Below, one piece after another: positions 47-18,126 of a stretch of DNA of 64,000 nucleotides. Within the stretch, counting starts at the first letter, position 1. Each line of letters starts with the position of its first letter. The notes beneath the pieces were generated by a model. The model was not told where the DNA came from and searched no databases. It worked only from the letters and a program-made list of their open reading frames with translations. The stretch comes from Tubulanus polymorphus (lineage: Eukaryota > Animalia > Nemertea), in the NCBI RefSeq assembly GCF_964204645.1, contig NW_027437461.1:1-64000 (forward strand). The letters are read 5' to 3'. Position numbers and translations under genes: made by a program.

Positions 47-3000
47 ATGGAAGATGTAAGAAATTATATTAATTCATTAGATAATAAAAAAGATATAGAG
101 ATAACCGAAGCATTTAAAAGTGATATTGGTCCAGCAGCTATCGAGTTTAAATTTCATAAAGGTAAAACATTAGAAGAAAATAAAAAACATTTAGAAAATA
201 TGAAAGAAATAATAAAAATAATTACAGATGTTGAATATCCTAAAATTAGTATATCAGTTAAAGTAAAGTTTATAAAATCTGAAGATAAACCAATATATAA
301 TATAAATTCTCATTCACAACATATTATATCTAAACAACATATAGATGATAAATTAGAAAAATGTTATAATGAAATAAAAACTAAAATAGAAGAAAAATAT
401 TTTGAAGGATCTGGTTTAATATTTGATGAGATAATATTTATAACTTTACATGTTTATAACACAAAATATAATAAGTTAACTAAATCAAAACCAATTGATG
501 AAAATAATTTATCATATTATAAAGATGATAGTATAAATGGAACAAGTTATATTAAACTACCATTTAAAACTAATGCTGTAATAAACATACAAAATGAAGA
601 TGATAAATGTTTTCTATGGGCTATAATAAGTTGTTTACATCCAGTTGAAGATTATAATAAACATACTTATAGATTAACTCATTATAAACCATTTGAAAAT
701 AATTATAAGATAGATAAGTATCCTGTTAGAATTAAAAACATCCCCAAAATAGAAAGAGATAATAATCTTAAAATAAATGTATTTGATTTAATTAAATTAC
801 CAAATACAAAAGGAAATAATATTAAACATTATACATTAGAACCTTTATATCTATCAAAAGATTATGATTCAAACGATGTTATAGATATATTATATTATGA
901 GAATCATTATATGTGGATTAAACAAATAGATTTATTTTTTAGAACAGAAAGTGATCACCATAATAAAATATATCTATGTAGAAAATGTTTACATAGATTT
1001 AGTAATGAAAGTACATTATTAAATCATAAACAACTATGTGATAATCATGATTATTGTAAATTAGTTTTACCAAATGAAAAGGATAAAATATTAGAATTCA
1101 AAAAATATGATTACAAAAATAAAGTACCATTTGTAATATATGGAGATTTTGAATCATTAAATAAAGAATTAACAGATAAAGATAGAAAAGATATATATTA
1201 TAAAAGAAAGAAATTAAATTCTAATGAAAGTGATTATTCAGATGAACCACTAAAAACAAATACAATTAAAAAGATTCATCAATCAGCTGCTGCTTTCGGG
1301 TTATATATTAAATCTAATTATCCAGAACTAATCGAAAGTGAATATTATAATTATAGAAATGAAAATGTTATCAATCATTTTTGTGACTTATTAATTGAAT
1401 ATGAAATAATATTTAGTAAATTATTGAATACAAATAAAGAAATAATTATGACAGAAGAAGATAAAGAAGAATTTGAGTTTGCAGATAAATGTTATTATTG
1501 TGAAAAGATATTTAATTATAAAGATAAAAAAGTAAGAGACCATGATCATTTGAATGGAAAGTTTAGAGGCGCAGCGCATGAGAATTGTAACTTACAAGCT
1601 AAGAAAATTAACTTTGTACCAGTTATATTTCATAATCTATCAGGATATGATGCACATTTATTTATCAAACAGTTATGTCATAAAATAGAAGAAATCAATA
1701 ATGAAATAGAAATATTAAATTCAAATAAACCAAAAGATAAAATACCAACTTATAAATTTAGAATGTTAGCTAAAACATCTGAGAATTATATATCTTTCCA
1801 ATTTGGATGCTTAAGATTTATAGATTCATATAGATTTTTAAGTAGTTCATTAGACAATCTATCAAAATCATTAGTTGATTATGAATTAAAGATATTAAAA
1901 GAATATTACCCAAATTATGATGATTTTAAATTAATGAGATATAAAGGAGCGATTCCATATTCTTTCTATAAAAATCATAATGATTTTAATATAACTGAAT
2001 TATTAAAAGAACAATTTTATGATGAATTAAAAAATGAATATGTTAAAGATGAAGTTTATAATAGAACATTGAATATTTGGAATCATTTCAAAATAGAAAA
2101 TCATGGTCAATTAGTAGATTTATATTTGAAATCAGATGTATTATTATTAACTGATATATTCGAAAGGTTTAGAGATGTAAACCTAAAATATTTTAACATT
2201 GATCCTTGTCATTGTTATTCTAGCCCAGGATTAACATGGGATTGTGGATTAAAATTTACAGATATAAAAATGGATTTGTTAACAAATATAGATCAATTAC
2301 TATTATTTGAAAAATCTATAAGAGGAGGTGTTTCAGGTGTATTAGGGGATAGATATTTCAATGTAAATGATAACCCTGGATATAAATTATTATACATAGA
2401 TGTAAATAATCTTTATGGTTGGGCAATGATGGAACCACAACCTTATGGGATGTTTGAAATAACTGAAGTTTTACAAATTGATAAATTTGATTGGAAGAAA
2501 AGAATTCTAGATATTGCAGATGATTCAGATACTGGTTACTTCTTTGTTGTAGATTTAAAATACCCCGAAAATATTAAATTCAAATCTAGAAATCTAGCAT
2601 ATTGTCCCGAACATAAAACTGTTAAACATGAAGAATTATCAAATTATCAAAAAAGAATTAAACCCGATAATCATATTCATACTGAAAAGTTAATGGTAAC
2701 TCAAGAAGATAAATATAATTACGTTGTGCATTATAGAATGTTGAAGTTTTATTTGAATCAAGGAATGATATTAAAAAAAGTACATAGATATATTTCATTC
2801 AGTCAATCTAAATGGTTAGAAAAATATATAGATTTTAATACTACACAGAGAACTAAATCTAAAACTGATTTTGAGAAGGATTTCTTCAAGTTAATGAATA
2901 ATGCATTCTATGGTAAGACTTGTGAAAATATTAGAAATAGAAATGATATTGAGTTAGTTAGTAATGGTAAAAGAATTAGGCATTTACAATCATATCCTAA

Positions 3001-3394
3001 GTTTATAGGTAACAGAATATTTGATGAAAATTTAGCAGCAGTTAAAATGAGGAGAACTTCTATGAAGTTCAATAAACCTATTTATGTTGGTGCATCAGTT
3101 CTAGAAATTTCAAAGTTATTAATGTATCAATTTTATTATAACATATTACAACCCCATTTTGGAGAAAAACACATAGAAATCTTATATTTTGATTCTGTAA
3201 CAGCTGACACCCCAATATTTTTAAAATATAATAATCAAATGTTAATTAGAAGAATTTCAGAAATAATTCCAAAACAAAATGAACTTTATATTTCATATGG
3301 TGAAAAAGAATTAATACAAATAAATGGATTAATGGATGTTTGGACAAAAAATGGATGGGTGAAATTAAAGAATATAATTAGACAAAACGAATAA
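47..3394 (+). CDS. polB: Protein-primed family B DNA polymerase, N-terminal part (true start upstream of window), running into intein N-terminus
   Basis: Exonuclease motifs YGDFES, FHNLSGYDAH, YLKSDVLLL; polymerase motifs YIDVNNLYG, KLMNNAFYGK; YFD just before the intein. Embedded CxxC...RDHDH...GAAHxxCN (endonuclease VII-like) domain. Frame is open before the ATG (TIKRIKNKLNNKRPY), matching copy 2 ORF 51931-52476. Confidence 0.95.
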   Translation: MEDVRNYINSLDNKKDIEITEAFKSDIGPAAIEFKFHKGKTLEENKKHLENMKEIIKIITDVEYPKISISVKVKFIKSEDKPIYNINSHSQHIISKQHIDDKLEKCYNEIKTKIEEKYFEGSGLIFDEIIFITLHVYNTKYNKLTKSKPIDENNLSYYKDDSINGTSYIKLPFKTNAVINIQNEDDKCFLWAIISCLHPVEDYNKHTYRLTHYKPFENNYKIDKYPVRIKNIPKIERDNNLKINVFDLIKLPNTKGNNIKHYTLEPLYLSKDYDSNDVIDILYYENHYMWIKQIDLFFRTESDHHNKIYLCRKCLHRFSNESTLLNHKQLCDNHDYCKLVLPNEKDKILEFKKYDYKNKVPFVIYGDFESLNKELTDKDRKDIYYKRKKLNSNESDYSDEPLKTNTIKKIHQSAAAFGLYIKSNYPELIESEYYNYRNENVINHFCDLLIEYEIIFSKLLNTNKEIIMTEEDKEEFEFADKCYYCEKIFNYKDKKVRDHDHLNGKFRGAAHENCNLQAKKINFVPVIFHNLSGYDAHLFIKQLCHKIEEINNEIEILNSNKPKDKIPTYKFRMLAKTSENYISFQFGCLRFIDSYRFLSSSLDNLSKSLVDYELKILKEYYPNYDDFKLMRYKGAIPYSFYKNHNDFNITELLKEQFYDELKNEYVKDEVYNRTLNIWNHFKIENHGQLVDLYLKSDVLLLTDIFERFRDVNLKYFNIDPCHCYSSPGLTWDCGLKFTDIKMDLLTNIDQLLLFEKSIRGGVSGVLGDRYFNVNDNPGYKLLYIDVNNLYGWAMMEPQPYGMFEITEVLQIDKFDWKKRILDIADDSDTGYFFVVDLKYPENIKFKSRNLAYCPEHKTVKHEELSNYQKRIKPDNHIHTEKLMVTQEDKYNYVVHYRMLKFYLNQGMILKKVHRYISFSQSKWLEKYIDFNTTQRTKSKTDFEKDFFKLMNNAFYGKTCENIRNRNDIELVSNGKRIRHLQSYPKFIGNRIFDENLAAVKMRRTSMKFNKPIYVGASVLEISKLLMYQFYYNILQPHFGEKHIEILYFDSVTADTPIFLKYNNQMLIRRISEIIPKQNELYISYGEKELIQINGLMDVWTKNGWVKLKNIIRQNE

Positions 3395-4256
3395 GAAAAT
3401 CTATAGAGTTAGAACTAAATTAGGATTTGTTGATGTTACTGAAGATCATAGTTTAATTAAACGAAATGGTGATGAAATAAAACCAACTGATATAAAAATT
3501 GGAGATGAATTATTACACAACAGATTTTACCCAAGAATGAATCATATGTTATTTGATAAAATAATTGATAATATTTATAATATAGAACCCGAAACATTAG
3601 AAGAAAAAGAATATTTTATCAAAGGATTTTTTATGGGTGATGGTTCAGCAGGTGTGTATAATTATGTTAGTGGAACTAAATATTGTTGGTATTTATGCAA
3701 TCAAGATTTGAAATTATTAGAAAGAATTAAGAAATACTGTGAAGAAGTTTATTCACATAAAACATTTAGAATCATGGATGTTATGAAATCATCGCAATGT
3801 TATAGAATACATGTGAATAATCCTAAAGATTTTGCTACAAAATATAATGATGAATTCTATATTCATGCAATAGTGAAAAGTAATACTTCAACAAAAGAAA
3901 AGATAGTTCCAGATTATGTATTAAATGCAAAATATGATTTAAGAAAATGGTTCTTCATTGGATTTTATGCTGCAGATGGTTCAAAAAAATATACAAAACA
4001 GAAAACTATATCTTTGACACAAAAAGGAAAAGTTGCTATATCAGGATTAAATATATTATGCAATTCATTAGGATTTAATATGTTAGTTAATATTAGAAAA
4101 GATAAACTAAATGTATTTCAATTAACGCATGTAGAAAATGAACTAACTGAAGAAGCTACTGATTTATTTGAAATATACAATCCTACAGAATGTGTTTATG
4201 ATTTAACAACTGAAGATGGTACATTTAATTGTGGATTTCCATTAATCATAAAAAAT
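3194..4256 (+). other. Intein with LAGLIDADG homing endonuclease in the pPolB YxD|TDS motif (2-nt frameshift near 3385)
   Basis: Block A SVTADTP directly after YFD; block B FVDVTEDHSL (shifted frame, ~3426-3455); LAGLIDADG motifs FIKGFFMGDGS and FFIGFYAADGS; block F VYDLTTEDGTF; C-terminal IIKN followed by extein T(DS). Copy 2 reads YFDTDS uninterrupted. Confidence 0.93.
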
Positions 4257-4787
4257 ACAGATTCTTACATATTAAAGATAAAAACTGATAACATAACAGA
4301 TGATTTAAAAACATTAAAACACCATTTTGATTTTAGTAACTATCCTAAAGATCATGAATTGTTTAGCAATGATAATAAAAAAGTTCCAGGGAAGTTTAAG
4401 GATGAATTAGGTGGTGAAGAAATGATAGAGTTCATTGGTATTAGATCTAAAATGTATTCATATAAAACTAAAACTCATGAAGCTAAAAAGTTAAAAGGAA
4501 TTACCAAAAGTGTAGTAGAAAAGAATATTCATTTCAAAGATTACATTAATTGTATATTTAATGAAGAAGTTAGAAAACATAAGATGAAATGTTTAAGATC
4601 TGAGTACCACGAAATGTTTATTGAAGAAATAGAGAAGATAAGTCTAAACCCATTTGATGATAAAAGATATATTTTAGATGATGGAATCCACACAGTCGCC
4701 TATGGTTGCAATTTAGATGAATATATAAAATTCAAAAGAGAAGAAACAAAAGAAAATGAAATCATGAAAAGGATTCTAACGTGTTAA
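3537..4787 (+). CDS. polB: Intein endonuclease/C-terminal splicing region plus pPolB C-terminal extein (same gene as 47-3394)
   Basis: After IIKN: TDSYIL, FDFSNYP, VPGKFKDE, RSKMYS, LNPFDDKRY, typical of a pPolB C-terminus and near-identical to copy 2 41812-42340. Confidence 0.92.
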   Translation: MNHMLFDKIIDNIYNIEPETLEEKEYFIKGFFMGDGSAGVYNYVSGTKYCWYLCNQDLKLLERIKKYCEEVYSHKTFRIMDVMKSSQCYRIHVNNPKDFATKYNDEFYIHAIVKSNTSTKEKIVPDYVLNAKYDLRKWFFIGFYAADGSKKYTKQKTISLTQKGKVAISGLNILCNSLGFNMLVNIRKDKLNVFQLTHVENELTEEATDLFEIYNPTECVYDLTTEDGTFNCGFPLIIKNTDSYILKIKTDNITDDLKTLKHHFDFSNYPKDHELFSNDNKKVPGKFKDELGGEEMIEFIGIRSKMYSYKTKTHEAKKLKGITKSVVEKNIHFKDYINCIFNEEVRKHKMKCLRSEYHEMFIEEIEKISLNPFDDKRYILDDGIHTVAYGCNLDEYIKFKREETKENEIMKRILTC

Positions 4788-4815
4788 TCGATTTCAATAA
4801 AAATTTGTATAATAA

Positions 4816-5157
4816 ATGGAGAGTAAACAAGTACACAGTGAATTCTTAGATAGAATTAAAGATACTTCAAGCGTCAAATCTGTAGATTATAAATTTAAAA
4901 AACTAACTGAGTTAACAATTCACAAGAAATATTTAATTACTAACATTGAAACAATTACTAATAAATATGGAGATAAATTAGTAATTCATTTAGAATATGA
5001 AGGATTAAAAGGAAATAAATATAAATTCAGAACTTATTTACCAGATAGATTTCATAGATTATCAAGTGAAGATTTAGAAGAATTATGTTCTGGAGATTTC
5101 TATTTCGTATACAAAGGTAAGAATGAAAAAGGGCACCATGAAATAGATTTCGAATAA
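4816..5157 (+). CDS. Conserved Polinton protein, 113 aa (possible OB-fold ssDNA-binding protein)
   Basis: Intact in both copies (41441-41782) with TAAATG start. Beta-rich pattern KKLTEL..KKYLI..TNKYG..YLPDRF. Fold is inference only. Confidence 0.75.
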   Translation: MESKQVHSEFLDRIKDTSSVKSVDYKFKKLTELTIHKKYLITNIETITNKYGDKLVIHLEYEGLKGNKYKFRTYLPDRFHRLSSEDLEELCSGDFYFVYKGKNEKGHHEIDFE

Positions 5158-5174
5158 GAAAATATGTAAAATAA

Positions 5175-5933
5175 ATGGTGGAATTAAAAGAATACAGAAT
5201 ATTTGTTGATTCTAGAAAACTTACAAATTATAAATCACATAATTTATTAGTACAATTAGACAGAGAATTCAAGAATTGTGTAGATTTAAAATTAGTTAAT
5301 ATAAGTTTATGTAATTCTTTTCATAATATATCGGATAAAAGTTTTGATCATAGAGACTTTTTAATTCATATTAGAAATATAAATAAATGGTTTCAACTAA
5401 TTTTAAAACCAGGATTATATAATTTAGATACATTAGCACAAGAAATTAATCGGAGAGCACGATTAAAACTTAAAAGTGAAGATAAATTTTCAATTAGATT
5501 TATAAAAAGTGATAGTTCTAATAAAATTAAAATAAAGTTAGATGATGAAAACAAACATGCATTTATGGTAAGGAAACCTTTAGCTAAACTGTTAGGAATT
5601 AAACCACAAACTGTTACAGGAAACGTAGACGGTAATTCAAATATAATACCTTTTACACATTTTTATATTTATTGCAATTTAATTGACCCAACAAAAACAT
5701 TCGAAGCAACTAAAGATACAACATGTAATTCTAGTATATTAAATATTTTACCATTAAAAAATGTTAAACAATTTGGAACGCAAATAAATTATAATTTAGC
5801 TGAATGTGATTTCAAACCTTGTATTCCTCAATTTAATAATTTTAAATTAGAAATAAGAAATCATAATGGATACTTAATTGATTTGAATAACTTTCCTGTA
5901 ATTTATGAATTAGTTATAAGATGTAAAGAGTAA
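5175..5933 (+). CDS. Minor capsid protein (penton, single jelly roll)
   Basis: N-terminal IFVDSR, PGLYN, FYIYCNLI and C-terminal EIRNHNGYLIDLNNFPVIYEL, the pattern of Polinton/virophage minor capsid proteins. Confidence 0.8.
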   Translation: MVELKEYRIFVDSRKLTNYKSHNLLVQLDREFKNCVDLKLVNISLCNSFHNISDKSFDHRDFLIHIRNINKWFQLILKPGLYNLDTLAQEINRRARLKLKSEDKFSIRFIKSDSSNKIKIKLDDENKHAFMVRKPLAKLLGIKPQTVTGNVDGNSNIIPFTHFYIYCNLIDPTKTFEATKDTTCNSSILNILPLKNVKQFGTQINYNLAECDFKPCIPQFNNFKLEIRNHNGYLIDLNNFPVIYELVIRCKE

Positions 5934-5949
5934 TTTTTCACCTATATAA

Positions 5950-6297
5950 ATGAATATAACTGTTGGACCGAGTATATGTTTTGGGTTTGATTTTAAACGT
6001 GAGAAAGAAATGAAATTTAACATTTATGATGTAATAACACATATCAAAAATATTGCATTTTCTAATGAAACAACATTTGAGTATGAAACAACAATTGATA
6101 AAGAAACTTTTAATATAGAAAAGATTACCGAATCTTTAAGATTTTATGAATTAGATGAAGATTTTATCATCGATGATATTAAAAACATATTATCCAAAAT
6201 ATATGATAATCATAAAACTAGTAATGAAATAAATGTTGAATTAATCATAAATAAGTTAACTAAATATTTTGATGATAGTAATTTTTTTGATAAATAA
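5950..6297 (+). CDS. Polinton hypothetical protein, 115 aa
   Basis: TAAATG start; ortholog at 40294-40653. Confidence 0.75.
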   Translation: MNITVGPSICFGFDFKREKEMKFNIYDVITHIKNIAFSNETTFEYETTIDKETFNIEKITESLRFYELDEDFIIDDIKNILSKIYDNHKTSNEINVELIINKLTKYFDDSNFFDK

Positions 6298-6519
6298 ATG
6301 AGTGATAATAAGTGGATAATAACTGGATTATATAATGGCGCATTACTATCAGTTGGAACTGTTGGTTATTCAATGGTATTAAAAAAAGTATTCAAAATGG
6401 GAAGTGTTAATGTTGATAGATTTGATATAAATGATATTTTAAAGTTAACATTAGCAGTTACTTTATCTAATTTAACAATTGATTATTTGGAAAAACAAAA
6501 ATATATTCCTCCCATATAA
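6298..6519 (+). CDS. Small hydrophobic Polinton protein, 73 aa
   Basis: Two hydrophobic segments; nearly identical intact ortholog at 40076-40297. Confidence 0.8.
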   Translation: MSDNKWIITGLYNGALLSVGTVGYSMVLKKVFKMGSVNVDRFDINDILKLTLAVTLSNLTIDYLEKQKYIPPI

Positions 6520-6542
6520 ATGCATAATTTTTTGCTAAATAA

Positions 6543-6965
6543 ATGGCTTCTGCAATTATAACTATTATAGGATCAGCAATTGTTAACGCTTTAGCATTTA
6601 CTGGTGGTGGTTATTTATTTAAACATATTGATAAAAATGGTTCATTAACAGAACAAAAAAGACATAATTTAGCGTTAGAGAAATATAATAAAGATGCAGA
6701 AGAATATAGAGAAAAGAGACAAAACTATATGGATTACATCAATAAAGAATTATATGATCAGAAGATTTCACATAGAGATTTTCAATCAGTCGATGATGCA
6801 ATGAGTTTATATAACGCAGTAACAAATAAAGAAAAATTACATCTATACAAACCTAAATTATCAGATTATTATACCCCAAGTAAAGAACAACAGAAATATG
6901 AAATAATTTGGATTTTAGGTGGAACAGTTATTGTTATATTTGTTGCTTATAAGTTTACTAATTAG
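6543..6965 (+). CDS. Polinton membrane-associated protein, 140 aa
   Basis: Hydrophobic N-terminal helix MASAIITIIGSAIVNALAFTGGG, charged helical middle, C-terminal TM segment; ortholog 39629-40051. Confidence 0.8.
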   Translation: MASAIITIIGSAIVNALAFTGGGYLFKHIDKNGSLTEQKRHNLALEKYNKDAEEYREKRQNYMDYINKELYDQKISHRDFQSVDDAMSLYNAVTNKEKLHLYKPKLSDYYTPSKEQQKYEIIWILGGTVIVIFVAYKFTN

Positions 6966-6984
6966 TAATTTTTATTCTAAATAA

Positions 6985-7419
6985 ATGGAAGATAAAGTTG
7001 ATAGTATTGATATTATTCCTCATGATATAAATAAAACTAAATTAAAAATATATTTAGAAAAACAAATATTAGAATTTGAAAGTGACTTAAAGATAAAAAA
7101 GAAAAAATATTTAAAAAGTAAAATTATATATTATTTGATTATAAGTGGTTCGGTTACAATTAGTTCTGTAATAACATTTCTAGCAATATTCAGCCCATTA
7201 ACACCTTTAGCTATATCGATTGGTGTGTTAGGATTAAGTTCAAGTGTTTTAACTGGTATAAGTTCAAAATTAAATATAAAAAGTAATAAAGAAAAAATTA
7301 AAACTAATATAAAAGAAATAAATAAATTAAAGAACACACTAGATTATATAATAAGTTTAAATGGTCATATAACAGTTGAAGAACAAGATAAATTATTAAA
7401 AGAATTAATAAATTATTAA
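6985..7419 (+). CDS. Two-TM Polinton protein, 144 aa
   Basis: Hydrophobic hairpin flanked by basic coiled segments; ortholog 39175-39609 differs at two residues. Confidence 0.8.
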   Translation: MEDKVDSIDIIPHDINKTKLKIYLEKQILEFESDLKIKKKKYLKSKIIYYLIISGSVTISSVITFLAIFSPLTPLAISIGVLGLSSSVLTGISSKLNIKSNKEKIKTNIKEINKLKNTLDYIISLNGHITVEEQDKLLKELINY

Positions 7420-7435
7420 TTTTTTAATTATATAA

Positions 7436-8737
7436 ATGGGGTTTCCAAAAGCTTTCCAATATAATAAATCAATTAAATATAATATTCCAGCAATAGATTT
7501 TAAGAAAAATATTACATATAAAAATATAGTTTTAAATTCATTAACTAATTTAGAAATTTATGTTAATGAATCACAGTTTTTTATTTCTAAAATGGAAAAT
7601 ATATTTAATACATATGAAGTTACTTTTACTCGAGATGAATATCATAAATATAAAGTAAAATCTAATATGAAGTATTGGCAGAACCAATTAGATTTTGCTG
7701 TTTATTGTGCAACAACAGGATGTGGAATAAGTTGGAATGATCATTTAAATAACTTAGATAAAAATTTGAAGTATTCTGATTTAAAATTAATTCACACAAT
7801 ATTTAGATTTCACTCATATTTTCAAATCAGAATAATATTAAATGAATTAGAATGTCCTTTACCCGGGTCTAAATATTTTAAAGAATTAGATAATAATATT
7901 AATATATCCAAGTTTTATAAAATATGTAATGAATTTAATATAAATATTAATTCCGATTTTAGAGCGCATGGTAAATTGCAAGGTGTTGGTGAACAGTATG
8001 AAATAAAAAGAATTGATTATATGCATAGAATTGGAGCTTATCATAATTATAAAATTGATAATAATAATGGTTGGGTTAATTTCATTTTAGAAAATGGTGA
8101 AGGTTTTACAAAATCAGGTATAGAAAGAATAAATCAATCTATTAGAACTTATTTGATATGTATTCTAGGCGCCCAAGTTGAAACAAGATCCCCAATAATT
8201 GGAAATGATAACACTTCATTCGATGCGCAAAAACAATTCAAAGTATTATTTGAAGATTCCATACATGATGATAAAAATAGATCGATTCCAGAAAACATTA
8301 TAAGATATCAAAATTATTTAGATAAATCTCATGTAAGACTAAATTATTGTATAGGCCCTAATCTATTAATTATTTCTAATGATTTAGTATTAAAGATGGG
8401 AAATATAATTGGTTATAATAATCTAATTAAAACTGCAACAATAAATAATTCATTTGGATTAAATGATATAAATAAAAAGATTATTACTGCTCCAAAATTA
8501 ATGGAAGGTGAAAAAAATAAAAAACACATTCAATCAACAGAAACTAAAACTAAGAATATTAAATTGGTTAATGATTCCAAAATAAAAGATTATAATACAT
8601 CAGAAAATATAAAAACTGATATTATTCAACATGATATAATTAAACTAAATGATGATAATAAATCCCATGAAAATACTAAATTAGCTATAACTTGTATAGG
8701 AATTGTAATCGGAGGAATATTATATTTTAAATTTTAA
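7436..8737 (+). CDS. Conserved Polinton protein, 433 aa, with C-terminal membrane anchor
   Basis: YWQNQLDFAVYCATTGCGISW motif; C-terminal LAITCIGIVIGGILYF; ortholog 37774-39158. Confidence 0.8.
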   Translation: MGFPKAFQYNKSIKYNIPAIDFKKNITYKNIVLNSLTNLEIYVNESQFFISKMENIFNTYEVTFTRDEYHKYKVKSNMKYWQNQLDFAVYCATTGCGISWNDHLNNLDKNLKYSDLKLIHTIFRFHSYFQIRIILNELECPLPGSKYFKELDNNINISKFYKICNEFNININSDFRAHGKLQGVGEQYEIKRIDYMHRIGAYHNYKIDNNNGWVNFILENGEGFTKSGIERINQSIRTYLICILGAQVETRSPIIGNDNTSFDAQKQFKVLFEDSIHDDKNRSIPENIIRYQNYLDKSHVRLNYCIGPNLLIISNDLVLKMGNIIGYNNLIKTATINNSFGLNDINKKIITAPKLMEGEKNKKHIQSTETKTKNIKLVNDSKIKDYNTSENIKTDIIQHDIIKLNDDNKSHENTKLAITCIGIVIGGILYFKF

Positions 8738-8753
8738 TTTTTTTATTATGTAA

Positions 8754-10220
8754 ATGGCAGAAGGTGTAGAAGATATTGGAATGGATACTTTTGATAAACC
8801 CAGCATAACTGAAGAACAACAACCTAATTTAAATGAAACAAGTTTTAATGATGATGGTAATGAATCAGCTTATAATTCTAATTTAGCAAATAGAGGTTAT
8901 AAAGTCCCATCAACAGATGAATTTGATAGAAGAACTAGATCGAGAATACCTCCTGAAAATTTAGACCCATATTTAGAAAGAGAAAATTTAGAAAAAATTA
9001 GATTTTTAAGTAAGATTAAATATGATTTTAAAAAATCTGAATATAATATAAATGACGAAGGCGCCAGACTTTTAGCACAAGATTTAAAGTTTTTAGATGG
9101 TGAATATTATTATCATTTATCCTATGATTATTATATTGATATCTCTTATAAAAAAGGAGAAAAAATATTAGCAAAATCAACTTTGCTTAAGTCTGACTCA
9201 TTACTATCTAGAATTAAGAAAATCAATAATGATGTTATAACTGATTTAACACAAACAGAAATGAATAAATATTTAATAGTATTTAAACAAAGAATTAATG
9301 ACTTATTTAAAATAATCAAAAAGAAATCGGAAATAGAAACAACTTCTAAACAGAATATAACTTCCAAAACTAGTAAACTTAAATCAAACACTGAAGTTCA
9401 AACTGAAAAACTTTTACCGAATGGATTACTTGATGCAACAGATCAAGAAATAGAAGCTTTAAGTATGTTTTCTAAAAAAACAATTAGAGAAATAATAGGT
9501 ATACGAAATGAAGCCGATAAAATTGCTCGCGAAAAACATATTAGATATAATAAAATTAAACCTTTAGAAAATAAATTATTTGACACCAGAAAAGAATTAG
9601 AACAATTAAAATTAGATAGAGAATTTAAAGTTATTGAAGAAATTGAATTTAAAAAAAGAAATGCATATTTAGAAAAAGAAATTGATGATTTAAAATATAA
9701 CATAGAATTTCAGAAAGAAAAAATGAAATTATTATTAAAATCATATGATTATTGTATTAATAGATTAAAAGTTGTTGTTAAAGAGTTAATACTAAAACCA
9801 AATTCTGACATATCATTAAAAGATAGAATAAAATTATTATTTAAGTTTGAAGGAATAACAATTCTTTCAATTCTAACAGCTGTAACTATGGTATTTACAA
9901 CAATAGGTTTAGCAATATCAAATGCTTTAAAATCTACTCCTACTCCCACTCCTAATAAACCAGATAAACCTCCAGGCAATAATTCTATACAAGATAAAGT
10001 TAAAGATGGTTTAAAGAAATTAGCAAAATATTTATGGGAACTATCAAAGAAATCTGTTGCAGCTTTACCAGGAGTTATTGCTTCAATTGTTGGTTTTATA
10101 TTGAAATCTGCAGGAAACATTATTAACTTTGCTGCTGAACATATTATTTTATTTTTAATTACAGTTGTAAGTGCTATTATTTTTGGTTTAGTGAATATGA
10201 TATCAAAAAATATCAAGTAA
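8754..10220 (+). CDS. Coiled-coil protein with hydrophobic C-terminal helices, 488 aa
   Basis: Acidic N-terminus, long coiled coil, TM-like EGITILSILTAVTMVFTTIGLAI and C-terminal amphipathic/TM helices; ortholog 35331-37757. Confidence 0.8.
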   Translation: MAEGVEDIGMDTFDKPSITEEQQPNLNETSFNDDGNESAYNSNLANRGYKVPSTDEFDRRTRSRIPPENLDPYLERENLEKIRFLSKIKYDFKKSEYNINDEGARLLAQDLKFLDGEYYYHLSYDYYIDISYKKGEKILAKSTLLKSDSLLSRIKKINNDVITDLTQTEMNKYLIVFKQRINDLFKIIKKKSEIETTSKQNITSKTSKLKSNTEVQTEKLLPNGLLDATDQEIEALSMFSKKTIREIIGIRNEADKIAREKHIRYNKIKPLENKLFDTRKELEQLKLDREFKVIEEIEFKKRNAYLEKEIDDLKYNIEFQKEKMKLLLKSYDYCINRLKVVVKELILKPNSDISLKDRIKLLFKFEGITILSILTAVTMVFTTIGLAISNALKSTPTPTPNKPDKPPGNNSIQDKVKDGLKKLAKYLWELSKKSVAALPGVIASIVGFILKSAGNIINFAAEHIILFLITVVSAIIFGLVNMISKNIK

Positions 10221-10259
10221 ACATGATAAAAAATAAATAATTAATTTTTTGTTAAATAA

Positions 10260-11498
10260 ATGAGTGGGAGTTATATAAGTCCCTCTAAGATTTCTAGAAT
10301 ATCTAATGCTATTAAAGCAGAAAGATCACATCATATAATTACTCATAACCCTTCAAATATTAATCCTGATGAAACTTTATATGTTAGAATTCCTAGATTA
10401 ACACAAAATACTTTTTATGTTCCAAACAGTATTTATTTATCCGCTGATATAAAAGTAATCGGTAATAATAACAATTATGTCGTTGATAATGTTGGAAGAT
10501 ATTTAATTAAAAAGTTAACAAGATTGGTCCAGACAGTCTCATTAGATGATTATAATTTATTTATGCATTATAAAGATTTATGGTTAACTAAAGAAAATAG
10601 AAATAATATGATATTTCAAGGAATTCAATCAGAAAACCAAAATAAATTAAGATCAGAAGCTAATAGCGCAATATTAACAAATGATGTAGATAAATTGATA
10701 AAAAGTATATATGGAAGCAAATATAAAATTCCATTAGACTTTGAATTGATAAATAATAATGCACCTTTATATAAATACGCAATTCAAGAAGATATTATAT
10801 TTGAGATAACATTTGCTCCTGTAAATGAAATTGTATTATCTAGCGTTAATAAAGATATGAGTTATAAATTATCGAATATATGTTTAGAATATGATACAGT
10901 AACTGATGAAAATATTTCAAGTATAATTCAAACTCAATACAATCAAGGATTTTCATTATTATATGATTATATTGATAAATTTAAAACTGTAACTATTAAT
11001 GCAAATGATGAAATAATAAATGAGAATATTAACTTTCCTAGAAGATCTATTAAAGGTATATTAATATTTTTTACTATTGGAACATATACTAATGGTGCAA
11101 TAAATGTTGATAATTATTATAATCCTGAAATAACAAAAGTAGAAATAACTATTGAAGGAATAGCAAATAAAATATTTTGTCAAGGAATGAGAATGATAGA
11201 TCAATGGGTAGAAATTAAAAAACATTTTATGAATGAAAAAGTAAAATCATTTGAAAATTGTAACATTAATCAAATTGATTATTATACCGGTAATAAATAT
11301 GCATTATGGTTAGATTTTAGAACAACAGAAGATAATTCATTACATGGTTCTGGGAAAAAATTACAAAATACAAAAGATGGAATACAATTATTCATGACAA
11401 AGAAAAAGGGAATCAAAAATTTTAAAATGCACATTTATATTATATCTGACGCGCAATTAAATATTGTAAATTCACAATTAGATAGTGTTATGTATTAG
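10260..11498 (+). CDS. Major capsid protein (double jelly roll)
   Basis: Size and beta-rich sequence (HNPSNINPDETLYVRIPRL, YKLSNICLEYD, YALWLDFRT) fit a Polinton MCP; highly conserved with copy 2. Confidence 0.82.
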   Translation: MSGSYISPSKISRISNAIKAERSHHIITHNPSNINPDETLYVRIPRLTQNTFYVPNSIYLSADIKVIGNNNNYVVDNVGRYLIKKLTRLVQTVSLDDYNLFMHYKDLWLTKENRNNMIFQGIQSENQNKLRSEANSAILTNDVDKLIKSIYGSKYKIPLDFELINNNAPLYKYAIQEDIIFEITFAPVNEIVLSSVNKDMSYKLSNICLEYDTVTDENISSIIQTQYNQGFSLLYDYIDKFKTVTINANDEIINENINFPRRSIKGILIFFTIGTYTNGAINVDNYYNPEITKVEITIEGIANKIFCQGMRMIDQWVEIKKHFMNEKVKSFENCNINQIDYYTGNKYALWLDFRTTEDNSLHGSGKKLQNTKDGIQLFMTKKKGIKNFKMHIYIISDAQLNIVNSQLDSVMY

Positions 11499-11530
11499 AA
11501 TTTTAACTTTAATAAAAATGTATATAATAA

Positions 11531-12580
11531 ATGGAAGGTAAAGTATATAAACATATTCCTTACATCGATACACATGAAAATAATGATGGTTTATATTATG
11601 TAATACCTTGTAATATAGCTTTGATATTTGATCCTATTTTTAAAAATTATAAAACTAAACTGATAGAAATCGATAATAATAAAAGTGGTGTTGTTAATAA
11701 TTTAAGTAATGTAATTGATAATAATGAAATACCTTCTACATTAAATAATATAATACCTTCTACATCTGTAATACCTTCTACATCAAATAATATAATACCT
11801 TCTACATCAAATAACATAATACCTTCTACATCTAATAACATAATACCTTCTACATCTAATAACGTAATACCTTCTACATCTAATAACATAATACCTTCTA
11901 CATATAATAATGCAATAATATTAAATGTTAGTGAAAATAGAAATTATTGTGGTTATTGTAATGGTGAATTTTCAAACGCTCCATCAAATTGGAATAAACA
12001 TATGAATACAAATTCACATATTACTAATGTTATAGAACGTGTTGGTTTAAGAGAATTTATAGAACACCCATTTAGATATGTTACAAAGTTTGTTTCAAAT
12101 AAAAAAGTAAATGGTGAAAAAATATATGAAGATTTATTATTAGCAACACCTAATAAAGATGAATTAGATTTAACCGATGCTAATGAAATATTAGGATCAA
12201 ACACTGTAAATGAAATATTAGGAGTAAACACTAATAAAGATGATAATGAAAATGATGCCATAAAGCACCCACATGATGATATAGTTACAGTTAAACATAT
12301 TGATAATAAAGATTCTATAAAACTTAAAGTAGAAAATAATAATAAATTTGATTGGAAGAATAAGTTAAAAAATGAAACAACTATTGATGATGAGGTAAAA
12401 AAGATAAAAAAGGAAAAAAAGGTGAAAAAGGTGAAAAAGGTGAAAAAAAATTATAAAGATGTTGATGTAGATTCGGTAGAGCATTTAAATATGGTGTTAG
12501 AGTCATCTGATAGTGAAAGTGATTCAGAAATTGATAGTGAAAGTGATTCAGAAATTAATTATCTAACACTCAAAAAGTAA
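11531..12580 (+). CDS. Polinton protein with IPSTSNN tandem repeats and a C2H2-like zinc finger, 349 aa
   Basis: 24-bp coding repeat ~11728-11910; CGYC...HMNTNSH; basic and acidic tails; intact ortholog 33132-34025. Confidence 0.8.
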   Translation: MEGKVYKHIPYIDTHENNDGLYYVIPCNIALIFDPIFKNYKTKLIEIDNNKSGVVNNLSNVIDNNEIPSTLNNIIPSTSVIPSTSNNIIPSTSNNIIPSTSNNIIPSTSNNVIPSTSNNIIPSTYNNAIILNVSENRNYCGYCNGEFSNAPSNWNKHMNTNSHITNVIERVGLREFIEHPFRYVTKFVSNKKVNGEKIYEDLLLATPNKDELDLTDANEILGSNTVNEILGVNTNKDDNENDAIKHPHDDIVTVKHIDNKDSIKLKVENNNKFDWKNKLKNETTIDDEVKKIKKEKKVKKVKKVKKNYKDVDVDSVEHLNMVLESSDSESDSEIDSESDSEINYLTLKK

Positions 12581-12638
12581 TAAAGGTTGAAAATTGTATA
12601 AAATAATAGTAAATAAAAAAAAGGGTTTAAATTATTTA

Positions 12639-12708
12639 AGGTATCTAATAGGGTAACAGGTATTAGGGTATCAGGTATTAGGGTATCAGGTATTAGGGTA
12701 TCTAATAC
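12639..12708. repeat. 15-bp GGGTATCAGGTATTA tandem repeat between convergent gene blocks
   Basis: Seen directly; a rearranged version lies at ~32995-33075 in copy 2. Confidence 0.8.
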
Positions 12709-12724
12709 ATTGGTATACAAATAG

Positions 12725-13336
12725 TTATTTTATAAATTTATATTCATATGGAAATTGTAATCTCATTAATAATTTTGAACCTTTATTATTCTTTAATTTA
12801 TTCATATATTCATCATGTAATTCAGGAGGTATAATTTGATTTTCTTCTAATGATTGTTGCATAGATTTTCTATCTTTGTTATAAAATAAAACTAGAAATC
12901 TTATATTCTCTCTAAAATCTTTCACAATTGAATTATATTTCTGATTTAAAACCCAAGTTGTTATCCCAAAATGTCTACCAGAGAAAGCTAAATAACATAA
13001 CTCACTTTCTCTAATTTTAGAATCATGTAAATTTGCGCAATCATCTATAATGAATAATGTATTTGATCCTTTAAAAATATCTAATGCAATTTTAATACAA
13101 TTATCTAAATTTTCTTTTACTGTTTTAGGATCTAATATAATAAACTTTTTTATCTTAACTATATCTCTATTATACGTTTCATTCATTTCATATGTAGGAC
13201 AGAATAATATTATATTATCAAAATGATTCTTATAAATAGTTTCTAACAAATCTAATATGAAGTGTGTTTTACCACAATTTGTAACTCCAGTAACTAACAT
13301 ATTATGTGGTTCAAATATAAATAAATCTTTATTCAT
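12725..13336 (-). CDS. DNA packaging ATPase (A32/FtsK-HerA family)
   Basis: Walker A GVTNCGKT, Walker B LFIIDD, arginine-finger motif SGRHFGITTWVLNQ. Confidence 0.92.
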   Translation of the reverse strand: MNKDLFIFEPHNMLVTGVTNCGKTHFILDLLETIYKNHFDNIILFCPTYEMNETYNRDIVKIKKFIILDPKTVKENLDNCIKIALDIFKGSNTLFIIDDCANLHDSKIRESELCYLAFSGRHFGITTWVLNQKYNSIVKDFRENIRFLVLFYNKDRKSMQQSLEENQIIPPELHDEYMNKLKNNKGSKLLMRLQFPYEYKFIK

Positions 13337-14444
13337 TTATTCTTTTAATTTTACTAGATAAAATCCATTCATTAAATTTATCATCATATCCTTTATATTT
13401 CACCAAAGAATACTTTTTTCCTTTAAGAGTTTTTGTTTTCAATACTTTTTCTATTTTGTATTCTATTTCATCTGGATTTGGTACTAATGATAATTCTTGT
13501 TCATAGAAATAACCTAATATTTCTTCATCTTTTAGATCTTCTAGTTTATAAACAAATGGTTTAGTTAATATTATCTTTTTAATTTTAAATATTTCTTCAG
13601 TAAAATTAGGGGTATAACCTTTATAAAATGTTTTTCGATATTTAGATATTCTAACATGTTGTCCTATTTTAAATTTAGGTTCTCCAAAATCGTGTGTAAC
13701 AAATGCGCCATATAAATTATTCCAAACTATTTCCGAATTATCTTCTTTTCTAGCTTGTATAGGTTTCATATTTATAGAACTATGTTTAGAATTATTATAA
13801 CCTTTAACTAAATCATCTAACACATTGATATATTTATATGTTTCATTAGCAGTAAAATATTTCCACATTCTAGTTTTCAATGTTTTATTAAATCTTTCTA
13901 TAACGGATGCTTTTTTATCTGAATGTGTTGAAAAATATTCTACATCGTTATCAGATAATAGTTTTTTGAAATGTTTGTTATAAAATTCCTTACCTTCATC
14001 AAATTGTATCTTATCTGGAATAGCTTCTTTAAATATAGATTTAAAAGCATTTGTAACTTCTATACCAGTTTTATTTTTAATCGGGATACTCCATGCGTAT
14101 CTACTGAATATATCTATAACATTTAATATCCAAAAATATCCTTTGTTATATTCTTCTAAGTTTTTCATATCAATTAAATCAGCTTGCCATTGTTGGTCAA
14201 TATATGAAACCATTACTTTTCTTGTTAAATATTTTTTATCCATCTTTTTATGAATTTGATATGTGGGTTGATTTTGTAACCATGATTTTAATTCACTATA
14301 TTTTATACCACCATGTGGGTGCCGTACGGCACCATCACTATTATCAGATTTAATTTTATTCCATAATTCTGAAACGTTAGAATATGATACTTCACTTTCT
14401 GGGTTATAATATAAATCTCTCAAATATTGTTCTTTTTTCATCAT
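13329..14444 (-). CDS. int: Retroviral-type (RVE) integrase with C-terminal chromodomain
   Basis: WQADLIDM, IDIFSRYAW, IQFDEGKEF, VIERFNKTLK (DDE); C-terminal YKIEKVL...LVKYKGYDDKFNEWI. Confidence 0.95.
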   Translation of the reverse strand: MMKKEQYLRDLYYNPESEVSYSNVSELWNKIKSDNSDGAVRHPHGGIKYSELKSWLQNQPTYQIHKKMDKKYLTRKVMVSYIDQQWQADLIDMKNLEEYNKGYFWILNVIDIFSRYAWSIPIKNKTGIEVTNAFKSIFKEAIPDKIQFDEGKEFYNKHFKKLLSDNDVEYFSTHSDKKASVIERFNKTLKTRMWKYFTANETYKYINVLDDLVKGYNNSKHSSINMKPIQARKEDNSEIVWNNLYGAFVTHDFGEPKFKIGQHVRISKYRKTFYKGYTPNFTEEIFKIKKIILTKPFVYKLEDLKDEEILGYFYEQELSLVPNPDEIEYKIEKVLKTKTLKGKKYSLVKYKGYDDKFNEWILSSKIKRINE

Positions 14445-14447
14445 ATT

Positions 14448-14837
14448 TTAATCCATTAATAATATTTTAGATTTATTTTCATTTGATTTATGATTTGACT
14501 TATTTTCTGGTATAATAGGTTTATTGTCTGTACACGGATAACTAAGTTTCCGATCATCATTGGAATCATCTTTATCATCAGATTTGAATTTTGATTTATA
14601 TATTACACCGGATAATATAATAACTGTTACTAATCCAATTGTAATATATAATTTATAATTACTTCCAGCATTAGAAGAATTAGATGGATTATTATTTGAA
14701 TCAATACCATCAGATTCATTTATATCAGATAATTTCTTTTTCTTAGCTTTTTTTAATTCTGATGATCTTTTACCTAATTCTCTTGCCCATTTAATTTGTT
14801 TCTCGGATCTAGCCTTTTTCTTAACTCCATCACTCAT
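14448..14837 (-). CDS. Polinton single-TM protein, 129 aa
   Basis: Basic N-terminus, TM LYITIGLVTVIILSGVIY; ortholog 30915-31283. Confidence 0.75.
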   Translation of the reverse strand: MSDGVKKKARSEKQIKWARELGKRSSELKKAKKKKLSDINESDGIDSNNNPSNSSNAGSNYKLYITIGLVTVIILSGVIYKSKFKSDDKDDSNDDRKLSYPCTDNKPIIPENKSNHKSNENKSKILLMD

Positions 14838-15438
14838 TTATTTTAGTTAATTTTTGTTCTGATTCATTTTCTGTTTCGACATTTGGTTGTAGTACAGCGT
14901 CATCTGTTTCGTTCTTACCTGATTTATATTCCATAGGTTTGATGTTCGAAAATGTTATAACTCCAGTAGAAATCAATGTCATAACCGATCCTAATTGAAA
15001 TGAAGCATAACCAACCCATTTTTGTAATTCAGTCATAACTAAATAGTCATTTTTCAAATCATTATATAATTTATTTTCATCATCAATTGGTATTAACTGG
15101 TTACATAATTTTGATTAACATTTGACAATACCATTAGAAATAGAATCATTTATTCTAGCTAATCTTGACTCTTCATAAATCTTAAAATATTTTATTACTT
15201 GATCGGGTTTCATAGCATCTAGTTCTTGAAAAGTTATTATTTTTCCCAAGAAATCCTTAGATTTCCCGCCAGCAATTAATAATTCAAGATGATGCTTACA
15301 ATATAAATAGTATTCATAATCTATATTGTTATTAACTTGAATAGAATTAGAAACAACTGTATCCTTATTATCACTAATACCTAAATCATCTAATGTTTTT
15401 TCAATATCAATACTATTCTTACTCGATTTCTTTGACAT
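14830..15438 (-). pseudogene. Polinton hypothetical gene (~202 codons) split by one in-frame TAA at 15115-15117
   Basis: ORFs 15115-15438 and 14830-15057 are in one frame and read through as ...IVKC*SKLCNQLIPIDDENKLYNDLKNDY...; ortholog 30370-30922. Confidence 0.75.
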
Positions 15439-15741
15439 TTATATTAGAGGAAAAAAGCAAAAAAATATTATAAGTATTCTTCAAATGATACTAGCTAGTT
15501 AAAGTTAAAGAATTCTAGTATTGACTACTGATACTAGCTATTTGAATTTAAAGAATTTCTATTCGGATCTATTCAAAATATAAAGTATTCTCTTTTTGAA
15601 AAGAAAATATTAAAAATATAATAGAATTCGATAGCTAGTTGAAGTTATTGTTTTTTAAATACTTTTTATTTAAATTAGGATTTGATATCTCACTACTTTT
15701 GTTTATCTATTAGGAGCAGTAGTTATAACTGTCCAGATAAG

Positions 15742-16416
15742 TCATTTCGGATCCTTGATATCAAATTCCTCAACGTATCGTTCATTATTTGGATTATTGT
15801 TCCATTGATCAATAAATTTCTTTGCCTTTGTTAACTGTTCTAAATATAACTGTAAATCTAGTTTATTAGATTTGATTTGATTTTCTTTCTTTTCTAAAGG
15901 TCTTAAATTTTTCCAACCCCAAATAAGTTTCTTATTGTATTCATCATTCATTTTAAATTTAGATATTGGTAACACGTGATCAATATGGTAATAATCCCCA
16001 TAATTATCTATATTCATTTTATCATCGAATTGAAATATAATCCATGATTTGAGAAATTCATCTGAACAACCCAATAAATTAGATAGTGTTTCTGAATATG
16101 TTTCTTTGTTGAATAATTGTGTTAATCTAGACCTTAAGCATTGTTTCAATCTAAAATTAAGATCTGTTTGATATCTTTCTCTCATATATTCTGTCATATA
16201 ATCATTATAAGATTCTCTATTATCTTCTCGGTATTGTTTGGTATATAGTTTAATGCAAGTTTTACAGTAATATTGAAAACCATCTTTGCTAATCTTACGC
16301 TTACTAAATTCTGTTAATGATTTATCTAATTCACATTTAGAACACTTTTTGTAATATATGTTTATAACACCAGTGTTATTTGTAATATTGATAATTTGTG
16401 GTTGTTCTGGTTCCAT
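15742..16416 (-). CDS. HNH-family endonuclease with N-terminal zinc ribbon
   Basis: KKCSKC...CKTC; YHIDHVLP...NLRPLEKKENQIKSNK, an HNH-like pattern seen in phage and large-virus nucleases. Confidence 0.8.
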   Translation of the reverse strand: MEPEQPQIINITNNTGVINIYYKKCSKCELDKSLTEFSKRKISKDGFQYYCKTCIKLYTKQYREDNRESYNDYMTEYMRERYQTDLNFRLKQCLRSRLTQLFNKETYSETLSNLLGCSDEFLKSWIIFQFDDKMNIDNYGDYYHIDHVLPISKFKMNDEYNKKLIWGWKNLRPLEKKENQIKSNKLDLQLYLEQLTKAKKFIDQWNNNPNNERYVEEFDIKDPK

Positions 16417-16555
16417 TTATTATACGTATTTTTTTACTAAATTGGTTAATATTTTAGAATCCTCTTCCATTTCTTCGATCAGCGTCATACTTTTTCATTC
16501 CTCGCTGCTTTTGATAAGTTGTTTCGATTCCTTGATATCTAAATAATACCACTGG

Positions 16556-16898
16556 GCAAAACCGCGCATTCATGCGCGCTTTTGCTTAATGCGCATGCGT
16601 TAATCATAATTATATATTCATTCTGTAAATTCTGTGAAATAGAAACAACTGAACATAGAAAATTCAAACGTATGTACACTAAGCAAAACCGCTCTTATAG
16701 GAGCGTTTTTGATCAATGCGCATGCGCTAATCATAATTATATATTCATTCTGTGAAATAGAAACAACTGAACATAGAAAATTCAAACACATATGCATGAG
16801 GCAAAACCGCTCTTATAGGAGCGCTTTTGCTTAATGCGCATGCGCTAATCATAATTATATATTCATTCTGAATAGAAACGACCGAACATAAAAATTCA
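16556..16898. repeat. Three ~120-bp tandem repeats, each with a hairpin and a GCGCATGCG motif
   Basis: Units start at 16556, 16683 and 16801; a single unit in copy 2 at ~27565-27655. Confidence 0.85.
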
Positions 16899-16969
16899 TC
16901 AATCAGATTTACACAATACATTATACAAGTTGTTCGGCCGTTTCTTCTAATACATCATTTGATTTCTAT

Positions 16970-17190
16970 AAATACAATTTATAATTACAAACATTTTTTC
17001 AATTGCTGGTAAATATTTAACTACATCAACAAATGTTAAACTTAATCATTGGAGTCTTAATGTTTTTGAAATTCTTATATAGTTTCTTCGACGATCTTTT
17101 GGCGATTCTATTGGTTTGATATCCATTGCTGTTGATTCCTCAGTCAGAAAGAGTATCTTGAGTTTCTCTATCACTTCTTGATGCGTATGG
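16970..17190 (-). pseudogene. Internally deleted remnant homologous to the copy 2 accessory gene 28798-29528
   Basis: Minus strand reads LSLTFVDVVKYLPAIEKM vs LGLAFSEVVRYLPEIEEM; GATAGAGAAACTCAAGA vs GATAGTGAAACTCAGGA near the 5' part. Confidence 0.55.
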
Positions 17191-17598
17191 CGTTTTATTA
17201 ATCTAAAAGATATTAGCGGCAACTCTAGCCATCTAAAAGATATACTAAATACACTTAAATATATCTAAAGGTTTCATATTTAATAGCCCTAATAACTACA
17301 ACAAACAGTACTTACATTTAGATTTATAATTGTAAACTATAAACTCCTTATTTCGTTTCGAAAGATAGAATATCCTGAGCACAATATTACAGCGTATGTC
17401 CATTTCCGAGGCGATTTCTAGAATGAACATGTTGATTATGCCACGTCATCTAGTTCCGGCACGCCTTTCTAGAATATTCTACACGTTTCTGATTATGATG
17501 CGTCATCTCCATTCAGAGTTCCAGCACAATTTGTAATATTATGAGTCATAATGTCTCGTTGTTATAGTAACAACTGTAACAGCTGTGAATTTATCGAT

Positions 17599-17859
17599 TT
17601 ATTCTATAGCTCTGTACATTGAATGTATATAGGCTAAAATAGAATCATTTTCTAGTATAAACATCATATCCTCAACGTATTGTTCATTATTTGGATTAGT
17701 GTTCCATAATTCAATAAATTTCTTTCCTTTTGTTAACTGTTCTGAATATTCTAATTTCAATTTATTCTCTAAATGTGTTATAGTTTTATTGTGTCTTGCT
17801 TTTTGGGATTTATCTATACTTATCTTACATGTTGGGTAGTAGTATTTATTTGCTTCCAT
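17599..17859 (-). CDS. Chimeric mini-ORF: pPolB N-terminal zinc finger (in TIR) fused to a duplicated HNH C-terminus
   Basis: MEANKYY...HLENKLKLEY matches the pPolB start (52476); SEQLTKGKKFIELWNTNPNNEQYVE matches the HNH C-terminus. Confidence 0.55.
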   Translation of the reverse strand: MEANKYYYPTCKISIDKSQKARHNKTITHLENKLKLEYSEQLTKGKKFIELWNTNPNNEQYVEDMMFILENDSILAYIHSMYRAIE

Positions 17860-18126
17860 TTTAATACTATATTTTTTATTAAAATTGATTTTAGAAGTTC
17901 AATGATTTAAATGTTATTCATTTATGTGAATATTTTAAGAGTAATAGGGATAATAGGCTTTCGTATCAAAGGTTGAAGGGGCGAGTGAGTAAAAAAATGA
18001 AAATAATAATAATTTACAGTTGAATTAGGAGTGTGCGCGACTAATTCAACTGTAAATTATTATTTTCATTTTTTTACGAGCTCGACCCTTCGACCTTTGG
18101 TATGAAAGCCTATTATCCCTATTACT
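17746..18126. repeat. Right terminal inverted repeat of copy 1, with terminal 187-bp palindrome 17940-18126
   Basis: Homologous to copy 2 TIRs; AGTAATAGGG...CCCTATTACT fold-back. Confidence 0.88.

Follow-up and report, generated by a model that had tools for sequence, protein, structure and literature searches.

A Maverick/Polinton of the nemertean Tubulanus polymorphus with poxvirus-like candidate promoter motifs in two classes

The element and its gene starts

We analysed the first 64,000 nt of contig NW_027437461.1 of Tubulanus polymorphus, a stretch that we call the window. Its positions 1–18126 hold one copy (copy 1) of a Maverick/Polinton, an element of 20–30% GC with 16 tightly packed genes, and a second, inverted copy (copy 2) lies further downstream (Table 1). 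Genes were identified by Pfam and PHROG searches of the open reading frames (ORFs) in the window, and by AlphaFold and Foldseek for the capsid protein. The element combines a B-family DNA polymerase of the protein-primed type (pPolB), an rve integrase, an A32 packaging ATPase and a double jelly-roll (DJR) capsid protein with terminal inverted repeats (TIRs) and a 6-bp target-site duplication (TSD), and is therefore a Maverick/Polinton. In copy 2, the TIRs measure 462 bp (96.5%) and the TSD is AGCAAC (26975–26980 and 52818–52823). The capsid model (pLDDT 84.8) finds its best Foldseek matches in the capsids of iridovirus and the Paramecium bursaria chlorella virus PBCV-1, at E ~1e-16.

An earlier note on this DNA had proposed that nearly every gene of the element starts at TAAATG, in the manner of poxvirus late promoters. 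We find that TAAATG opens 14 of 16 real genes in copy 1, all at the coordinates first listed, which places the TAAAT(G) of poxvirus post-replicative promoters over the start codon. The total is 16 because two further ORFs are parts of other genes: that at 15036 continues the 15438 gene in frame past its premature stop, and that at 3537 belongs to the rear of the broken pPolB. Across both strands of positions 1–16500, TAA precedes 60 of 683 ATGs (8.8%), and among internal sense ATGs it precedes 31 of 396. Against the 8.8% background, the probability of at least 14 in 16 is 1.7e-13, and the base at −3 is T rather than the purine of a Kozak context.

Copy 2 retains all 14 motifs, as had been claimed, with 0/42 TAA positions changed. 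The windows from −18 to −1 differ between the copies at 9/252 positions, compared with 376/3052 third codon positions. The two exceptions had likewise been recognised correctly and are near-matches, TAAAATG for pPolB and TAAAATATG for the integrase. The pPolB start lies within the TIR (copy 2, 52476, minus strand) and is mirrored at 17859; copy 1's own pPolB start falls left of the window. Same-strand gaps on the plus strand range from 0 to 39 bp, and nine of ten measure 16–39 bp, in agreement with the gaps of about 15–40 bp initially noted.

The motif across related loci

We scanned metagenomes with a capsid profile and took 80 loci, the best of 269 confirmed. Counts refer to ORFs of conserved families after removal of 5 near-duplicate loci, and the related loci are not independent of each other. 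A capsid tree of 56 rows contains two well-supported clades dominated by TAAATG: (i) clade A, which includes the window, with TAAATG at 53/60 starts, 12 of 14 being supplied by the window, and (ii) clade B, with 24/25 starts. A small third group (L072/L074) has the motif at 4/7 starts, and the other 54 loci have it at 5/263. TAAATG is present in GC-rich members (L005, 44% GC, 3/4; L047, 39% GC, 6/6) and nearly missing in relatives of 26–28% GC (L043, 0/4; L045, 1/9); AT-rich relatives together carry it at 6/58 starts, 4 of these from the small third group. In loci without the motif, 196/263 starts have a purine (A or G) at −3, whereas the TAAATG clades have T. The sequence comparisons thus give good support to TAAATG being a trait of lineage that does not depend on GC content and runs against the Kozak rule. 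As regards a single origin, 2 changes are required on the capsid tree; the approximately unbiased test does not reject a joint clade (P = 0.10; 41/56 rows, 15 close relatives dropped).

Several relatives show features of their own. In L009, L015, L041, L045 and other loci lacking TAAATG, TATA or TATAG is enriched within 20 nt of the starts, even in GC-rich members, which recalls the late initiator of African swine fever virus (ASFV) or could reflect another promoter-recognition system. Within 20 nt of the ATG, TATA occurs at 35/199 starts of these relatives, against 5.5% among all ATGs of GC-rich loci. A close relative encodes a deoxynucleoside kinase with a TAAATG start (L008, 10343–10981), and L021 (9279–11516) joins the same capsid module to a superfamily 1 helicase in place of pPolB. 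Capsid homologues of 53% identity in cluster P0046 are labelled Bartonella sp. in NCBI/UniRef and are probably animal DNA in bacterial assemblies. Free-virus relatives were found neither in IMG/VR (capsid and 7436 profiles) nor in GTDB contigs.

A two-part signal in two classes

The start signal consists of TAAAT on the start codon and a run of T or A 9–15 bases upstream. Relative to the ATG, clade A has its T peaks at −12/−13 (91%/75%) and clade B at −14 to −12. For patterns that were defined after inspection, a T stands 9 bases before TAAAT at 57/63 starts compared with 35/119 internal TAAATG, and a T-run or T- plus A-run at 54/63 compared with 12/119; internal TAAATG is mostly coding, so part of this contrast reflects intergenic composition. 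The AATTTTT first noted upstream of several starts is only half of the picture. A T-run precedes eight of the 14 starts (5950, 6298, 6543, 6985, 7436, 8754, 10260 and 15438; AATTTTT itself in seven), and the other six (4816, 5175, 11531, 13336, 14837 and 16416) carry an A-run in the same register. The pPolB start TAAAATG (52476 in copy 2) belongs to the A-run class, also in register. A depletion of TTTTTNT in coding strands (5 vs 13.5 expected) was discarded as unspecific, since T5 and A-runs are depleted too, and also in relatives that lack TAAATG.

The T-run class comprises capsid and membrane genes, and the A-run class includes pPolB, the ATPase, a putative penton and a nuclease. Class tends to follow gene family across clade A (permutation P = 0.0016; 57/63 sites, singletons left out), with exceptions such as the homologues of 4816, 5950 and HNH. 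These classes invite comparison with vaccinia. Vaccinia late promoters have TAAATG and a conserved T at the tenth base upstream, among other T's (PMC11980589), and intermediate promoters have TAAA with or without TG, are A-rich and lack that T (PMC11980589; also PMC5294985); the latter drive DNA-binding and packaging genes (PMC11980589). Capsid genes carry a T at the tenth base upstream of TAAAT in 11/11 and 4/5 cases, g12 genes in 0/3 and penton-like genes in 0/2. Both vaccinia classes, one with T at the tenth base and one A-rich, thus have counterparts here, with a shared T peak at the ninth base, and the motifs suggest that the element mirrors the late as well as the intermediate class in nearly the same register.

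Further features of the locus

The 252-aa product of the 5175 gene, the putative penton, is family-wide, yet had no match in Pfam or among PDB sequences. Several of the six genes from 5950 to 8754 encode hydrophobic segments. Among them, the 7436 gene (7436–8737) specifies a family-wide 433-aa protein with invariant Cys/His residues; its predicted model is confident (201 residues at pLDDT of at least 90) and had no fold match in BFVD or PDB. Identities as a protease or a polymerase were rejected, as neither was matched, fold searches included. A homologue of the 115-aa protein gave weak helical structure matches only. Neither the window ORFs nor 23 ORFs from relatives matched an adenain-like maturation protease, which sets the element apart from adenain-defined adintoviruses and group 1 Mavericks; since only 74% of Polintons have been found to carry the protease (PMC4028283), the missing match is compatible with Polinton membership.

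The intein in pPolB is frameshifted in copy 1 and absent from copy 2 (3194–4256 vs 42334–42343). Its four best matches are pPolBs (43–62%), followed by 16 RNA-primed PolBs (31–41%), and it groups with four pPolB inteins (SH-aLRT 100), apart from five inteins of RNA-primed PolBs, in a tree that leaves out 11 of 20 matches, those whose intein ends were not parsed. One host of a next-closest RNA-primed PolB intein is Pol-delta-like. The earlier note had suggested that a large-virus helper would explain access to the intein, a weak argument given this grouping with other pPolB inteins and not with poxviruses; as proof of poxvirus contact we reject it. The intein, with relatives in at least 4 other pPolBs, is spreading among Mavericks and says little about a present helper.

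The outer 190–270 nt of each TIR (17940–18126, 26981–27250 and ~52550–52817) form a near-perfect palindrome with a predicted DNA fold of −68 to −99 kcal/mol. Differences between the palindromes of copies 1 and 2 appear in both arms alike, which suggests that a hairpin intermediate lets one arm serve as template for the other. The EndoVII-like domains of pPolB and of the 16416 gene could resolve such ends. An insertion in the pPolB of copy 2 (44016–50638) encodes an OTU-like protease and a Herpes_teg_N-like domain, and part of it recurs near 23948–24257. A GC-rich retroelement with reverse transcriptase flanks the element at 58864–62038; its relatives are from marine invertebrates, the few named ones among the 120 matches listed being nemertean, gastropod and sea star, which points to a marine invertebrate as the probable host.

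Table 1 Features of the two element copies in the window
Feature	Position	Strand	Remarks
Maverick/Polinton copy 1	1..18126	.	left end beyond window; right end ...CCCTATTACT at 18126
Copy 2	26981..52817	-	complete, inverted, decayed, with insertions
Right TIR of copy 1	17669..18126	.	mirror of pPolB start (TAAAATG, 17859 minus) and terminal palindrome of ~190 nt
pPolB	47..4787	+	PF03175 E=1e-16, PF02945; EndoVII domain; frame open to base 2
LAGLIDADG intein in pPolB	3194..4256	+	motif-C (YxD|TDS) site
Gene 4816, 113 aa: A-run class site and TAAATG	4796..4818	+	
252-aa gene, putative penton (start 5175)	5155..5933	+	A-run class TAAATG; family-wide
Six genes (5950, 6298, 6543, 6985, 7436, 8754)	5930..10220	+	each T-run class TAAATG
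DJR major capsid protein, 412 aa (start 10260)	10240..11498	+	T-run class TAAATG
349-aa repeat-containing gene (start 11531)	11511..12580	+	A-run class TAAATG
A32-like packaging ATPase (start 13336)	12725..13356	-	A-run class TAAATG; PF04665 E=1e-11
rve integrase with chromodomain	13329..14444	-	variant start TAAAATATG; PF00665 E=2e-9
129-aa gene, basic N-terminus (start 14837)	14448..14857	-	A-run class TAAATG
Family-wide gene (start 15438)	14830..15458	-	T-run class TAAATG; premature stop in copy 1
EndoVII/HNH-like nuclease (start 16416)	15742..16436	-	A-run class TAAATG; PHROG 1035 E=5e-20

Candidate polymerases for the signal

The likeness to poxvirus late promoters stands up well, being lineage-wide, independent of GC, opposed to the Kozak context, bipartite and repeated at both starts of divergent gene pairs. 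The element's proteins include no recognisable RNA polymerase or transcription factor. The likeliest reader of the signal would be a poxvirus-type polymerase supplied by a helper. Judging from the motifs, we assign a probability of roughly 0.55 to the reading in which a poxvirus-like large DNA virus that co-infects the cell supplies the RNA polymerase for these genes, in a virophage-like life; transcription by an outside viral-type polymerase of whatever kind we regard as likely. The two-part signal would then act as a poxvirus-type late or intermediate promoter for Maverick genes. By analogy with poxvirus biology, initiation within AAA with slippage would produce a 5′ poly(A) leader, and the base at −3 of the AUG would then be A and no longer T. 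Genes of the A-run class (pPolB, ATPase, putative penton, nuclease) would be switched on in the helper's intermediate stage and those of the T-run class (capsid, membrane proteins) in its late stage. Until such a virus enters the cell, the integrated copy would remain silent, as in mavirus. There are published precedents: slippage on AAA is known from vaccinia, slippage on a TAAAN initiator is proven in yeast pPolB plasmids (PMC6211774), promoter sharing with helpers is documented for Sputnik, mavirus and the polinton-like virus (PLV) Gezel-14T (bioRxiv 2022.07.28.501842), and entomopoxvirus occlusion bodies contain PLVs (PMC11296320).

Several observations weigh against transcription by a poxvirus-like helper. 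The motif evidence is correlative throughout and comes from related, non-independent loci, the upstream classes were drawn up after the fact, and the strongest T peak of clade A lies at the ninth base, one off the tenth of vaccinia. Relatives without TAAATG, many with TATA just before the ATG, have short divergent gaps as well, and near-leaderless starts therefore look family-wide rather than specific to the TAAATG clades. Such relatives also encode VLTF3-like genes (L041, 5749–6387, E=1e-16; L009, 6543–7049, weak), already reported for coral polintons (PMC11131425); a weak search found no homologues of them in the TAAATG clades. The integrase implies a nuclear stage. The papers listed by our literature search include no poxvirus of marine invertebrates, and no candidate helper emerged: among the 240 IMG/VR loci listed, which were picked for carrying the motif, none with at least 4 ORFs exceeds 50% TAAATG, and the motif stands at 102/1223 starts. 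One IMG/VR contig resembling nucleocytoplasmic large DNA viruses (NCLDVs) and encoding a cap methyltransferase has TAAATG at 5/14 starts; the motif is therefore not unique to poxviruses. Finally, the intronless, tightly packed genes that had been cited in favour of a cytoplasmic polymerase carry little weight, as intronless ORFs are general to Mavericks (PMC8097293) and short gaps are shared by relatives without the motif.

Transcription in the nucleus by host RNA polymerase II (Pol II), steered to the motif by a factor of the element or of a sibling Maverick, would make the likeness to poxviruses a convergence on an AT-rich initiator. The TATA enrichment near the ATG of relatives without TAAATG, three starts that read TATAAATG and several window proteins without assignment speak for such a mechanism, which we nevertheless hold to be unlikely. 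TBP, TFIIB, VLTF and RNA polymerase had no match in the window ORFs scanned with Pfam and PHROGs, and neither the conserved 433-aa protein, which lacks a fold match, nor the homologue of the 115-aa protein, with its weak helical matches, points to such a factor. Transcription from a Pol II TATA box starts about 30 nt downstream, and a TATA box that abuts the ATG cannot serve as one; T at −3 would moreover be a poor Kozak context in the resulting transcript.

A helper of another kind, either a nucleocytovirus outside the poxviruses or a linear element of the pGKL2 kind that brings its own pox-related polymerase, is in our estimate more doubtful still. In its favour, yeast pPolB plasmids initiate at TAAAN and show slippage (PMC6211774), the late promoters of ASFV have two parts as well (PMC5294985), the NCLDV-like contig carries the motif at 5/14 starts, and the next relatives of the intein after those of pPolBs reside in RNA-primed PolBs, one of them Pol-delta-like. 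Against this, TAAATG is rare at the starts of 10 AT-rich giant-virus loci from metagenome-assembled genomes (4/75), which were picked for carrying the motif; the match to two classes, late and intermediate, is described for poxviruses (PMC11980589), and the upstream element of the yeast plasmids resembles pox early promoters (PMC6211774).

A role in translation or at 3′ ends, as TAA–ATG coupling, an AATAAA poly(A) signal or a host Kozak context, is largely refuted and very improbable. Positions 6297/6298 are a true stop-start junction, and 10/14 starts read AATAAATG. In 13/14 cases, however, TAA is not the stop of the upstream gene, and TAAATG also stands at 16416, directly upstream of which no gene ends. 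Across the loci, nine non-overlapping divergent pairs, whose start codons lie 14–37 bp apart, have TAAATG on both sides (in a tenth, only one side carries it), an arrangement that fits neither stop-start coupling nor a poly(A) signal, and relatives without TAAATG follow the purine rule at −3. AATAAA is not depleted in coding strands (65 vs 64.6), nor in AT-rich relatives without TAAATG (100 vs 104), and is uninformative. Chance in DNA of 20–30% GC or a bias of ORF calling is negligible as an explanation, given P ~1e-13 and the 5/263 starts in other loci and 6/58 in AT-rich relatives returned by the same ORF caller.

Significance and comparison with known systems

The feature is real, lineage-wide and richer than first described, namely a Maverick with what looks like a poxvirus-like two-class promoter system. 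Animal Mavericks are abundant, yet to our knowledge no virion or life cycle has been demonstrated. A helper-type promoter at nearly every gene, in two timed classes, would offer a concrete and cheap test of virophage-like Mavericks. If the poxvirus-like helper is real, provirophage biology would extend from protists to animal germlines, and Maverick promoters would be a fossil record pointing to unsampled large DNA viruses of marine invertebrates. More tentatively, and at slightly less than even odds, a widespread lineage of animal Mavericks may consist of integrated satellites of poxvirus-like viruses that carry the intermediate and late promoters of the helper as a two-step programme. This would predict pox-like viruses of marine invertebrates, might amount to an inducible anti-poxvirus defence, and would have TATA-type sister lineages track other helpers.

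With animal Mavericks/Polintons (Polintoviricetes; adintoviruses), the element shares pPolB, rve integrase, A32 ATPase, DJR capsid, TIRs, a 6-bp TSD and intronless genes, and differs by the missing adenain-like protease match. The available portions of PMC11161782, PMC11131425, a nematode Polinton preprint and a 2026 PLV framework preprint describe no promoter motif for Mavericks (the word ‘promoter’ occurs 0 times), and of the two uses in the available text of PMC8097293, one seen concerns a host gene. A literature search covering sources other than subscription papers, Repbase notes and preprint supplements found, among the papers listed, no report that ties TAAATG to Mavericks or PLVs. Entomopoxvirus-associated PLVs are proposed poxvirus hyperparasites of animals and, unlike the present element, encode an adenovirus-type protease (PMC11296320). 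The available text of that paper contains no promoter analysis (‘promoter’, ‘motif’ and ‘transcription’ 0 times; ‘promoter’ 0 times in the supplement), and two TAAATG occurrences in its supplement, both in repeat-sequence tables, are unusable for gene starts.

Mavirus and Sputnik virophages and PLV Gezel-14T are likewise small DJR-capsid elements bearing the promoter motifs of a larger virus (bioRxiv 2022.07.28.501842), although with protist hosts and with helpers and motifs of the mimivirus type. The capsid described here is closer in fold to iridovirus and PBCV-1, the mavirus capsid ranking 45, and no virophage cysteine protease was matched in the window ORFs; the element thus works like a virophage at most and is no member of the virophage class (Maveriviricetes/Virophaviricetes). 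Yeast cytoplasmic pGKL plasmids, too, replicate with a pPolB and initiate at TAAA with proven slippage, but lack capsid and integrase and encode their own RNA polymerase and capping enzyme (PMC6211774). Vaccinia shares TAAAT(G) on the start codon and T-rich versus A-rich classes about 10 bases upstream (PMC11980589, PMC5294985), with a packaging gene in the A class and the capsid in the T class. It differs in that the present system is a 16-gene integrating element without a recognisable RNA polymerase.

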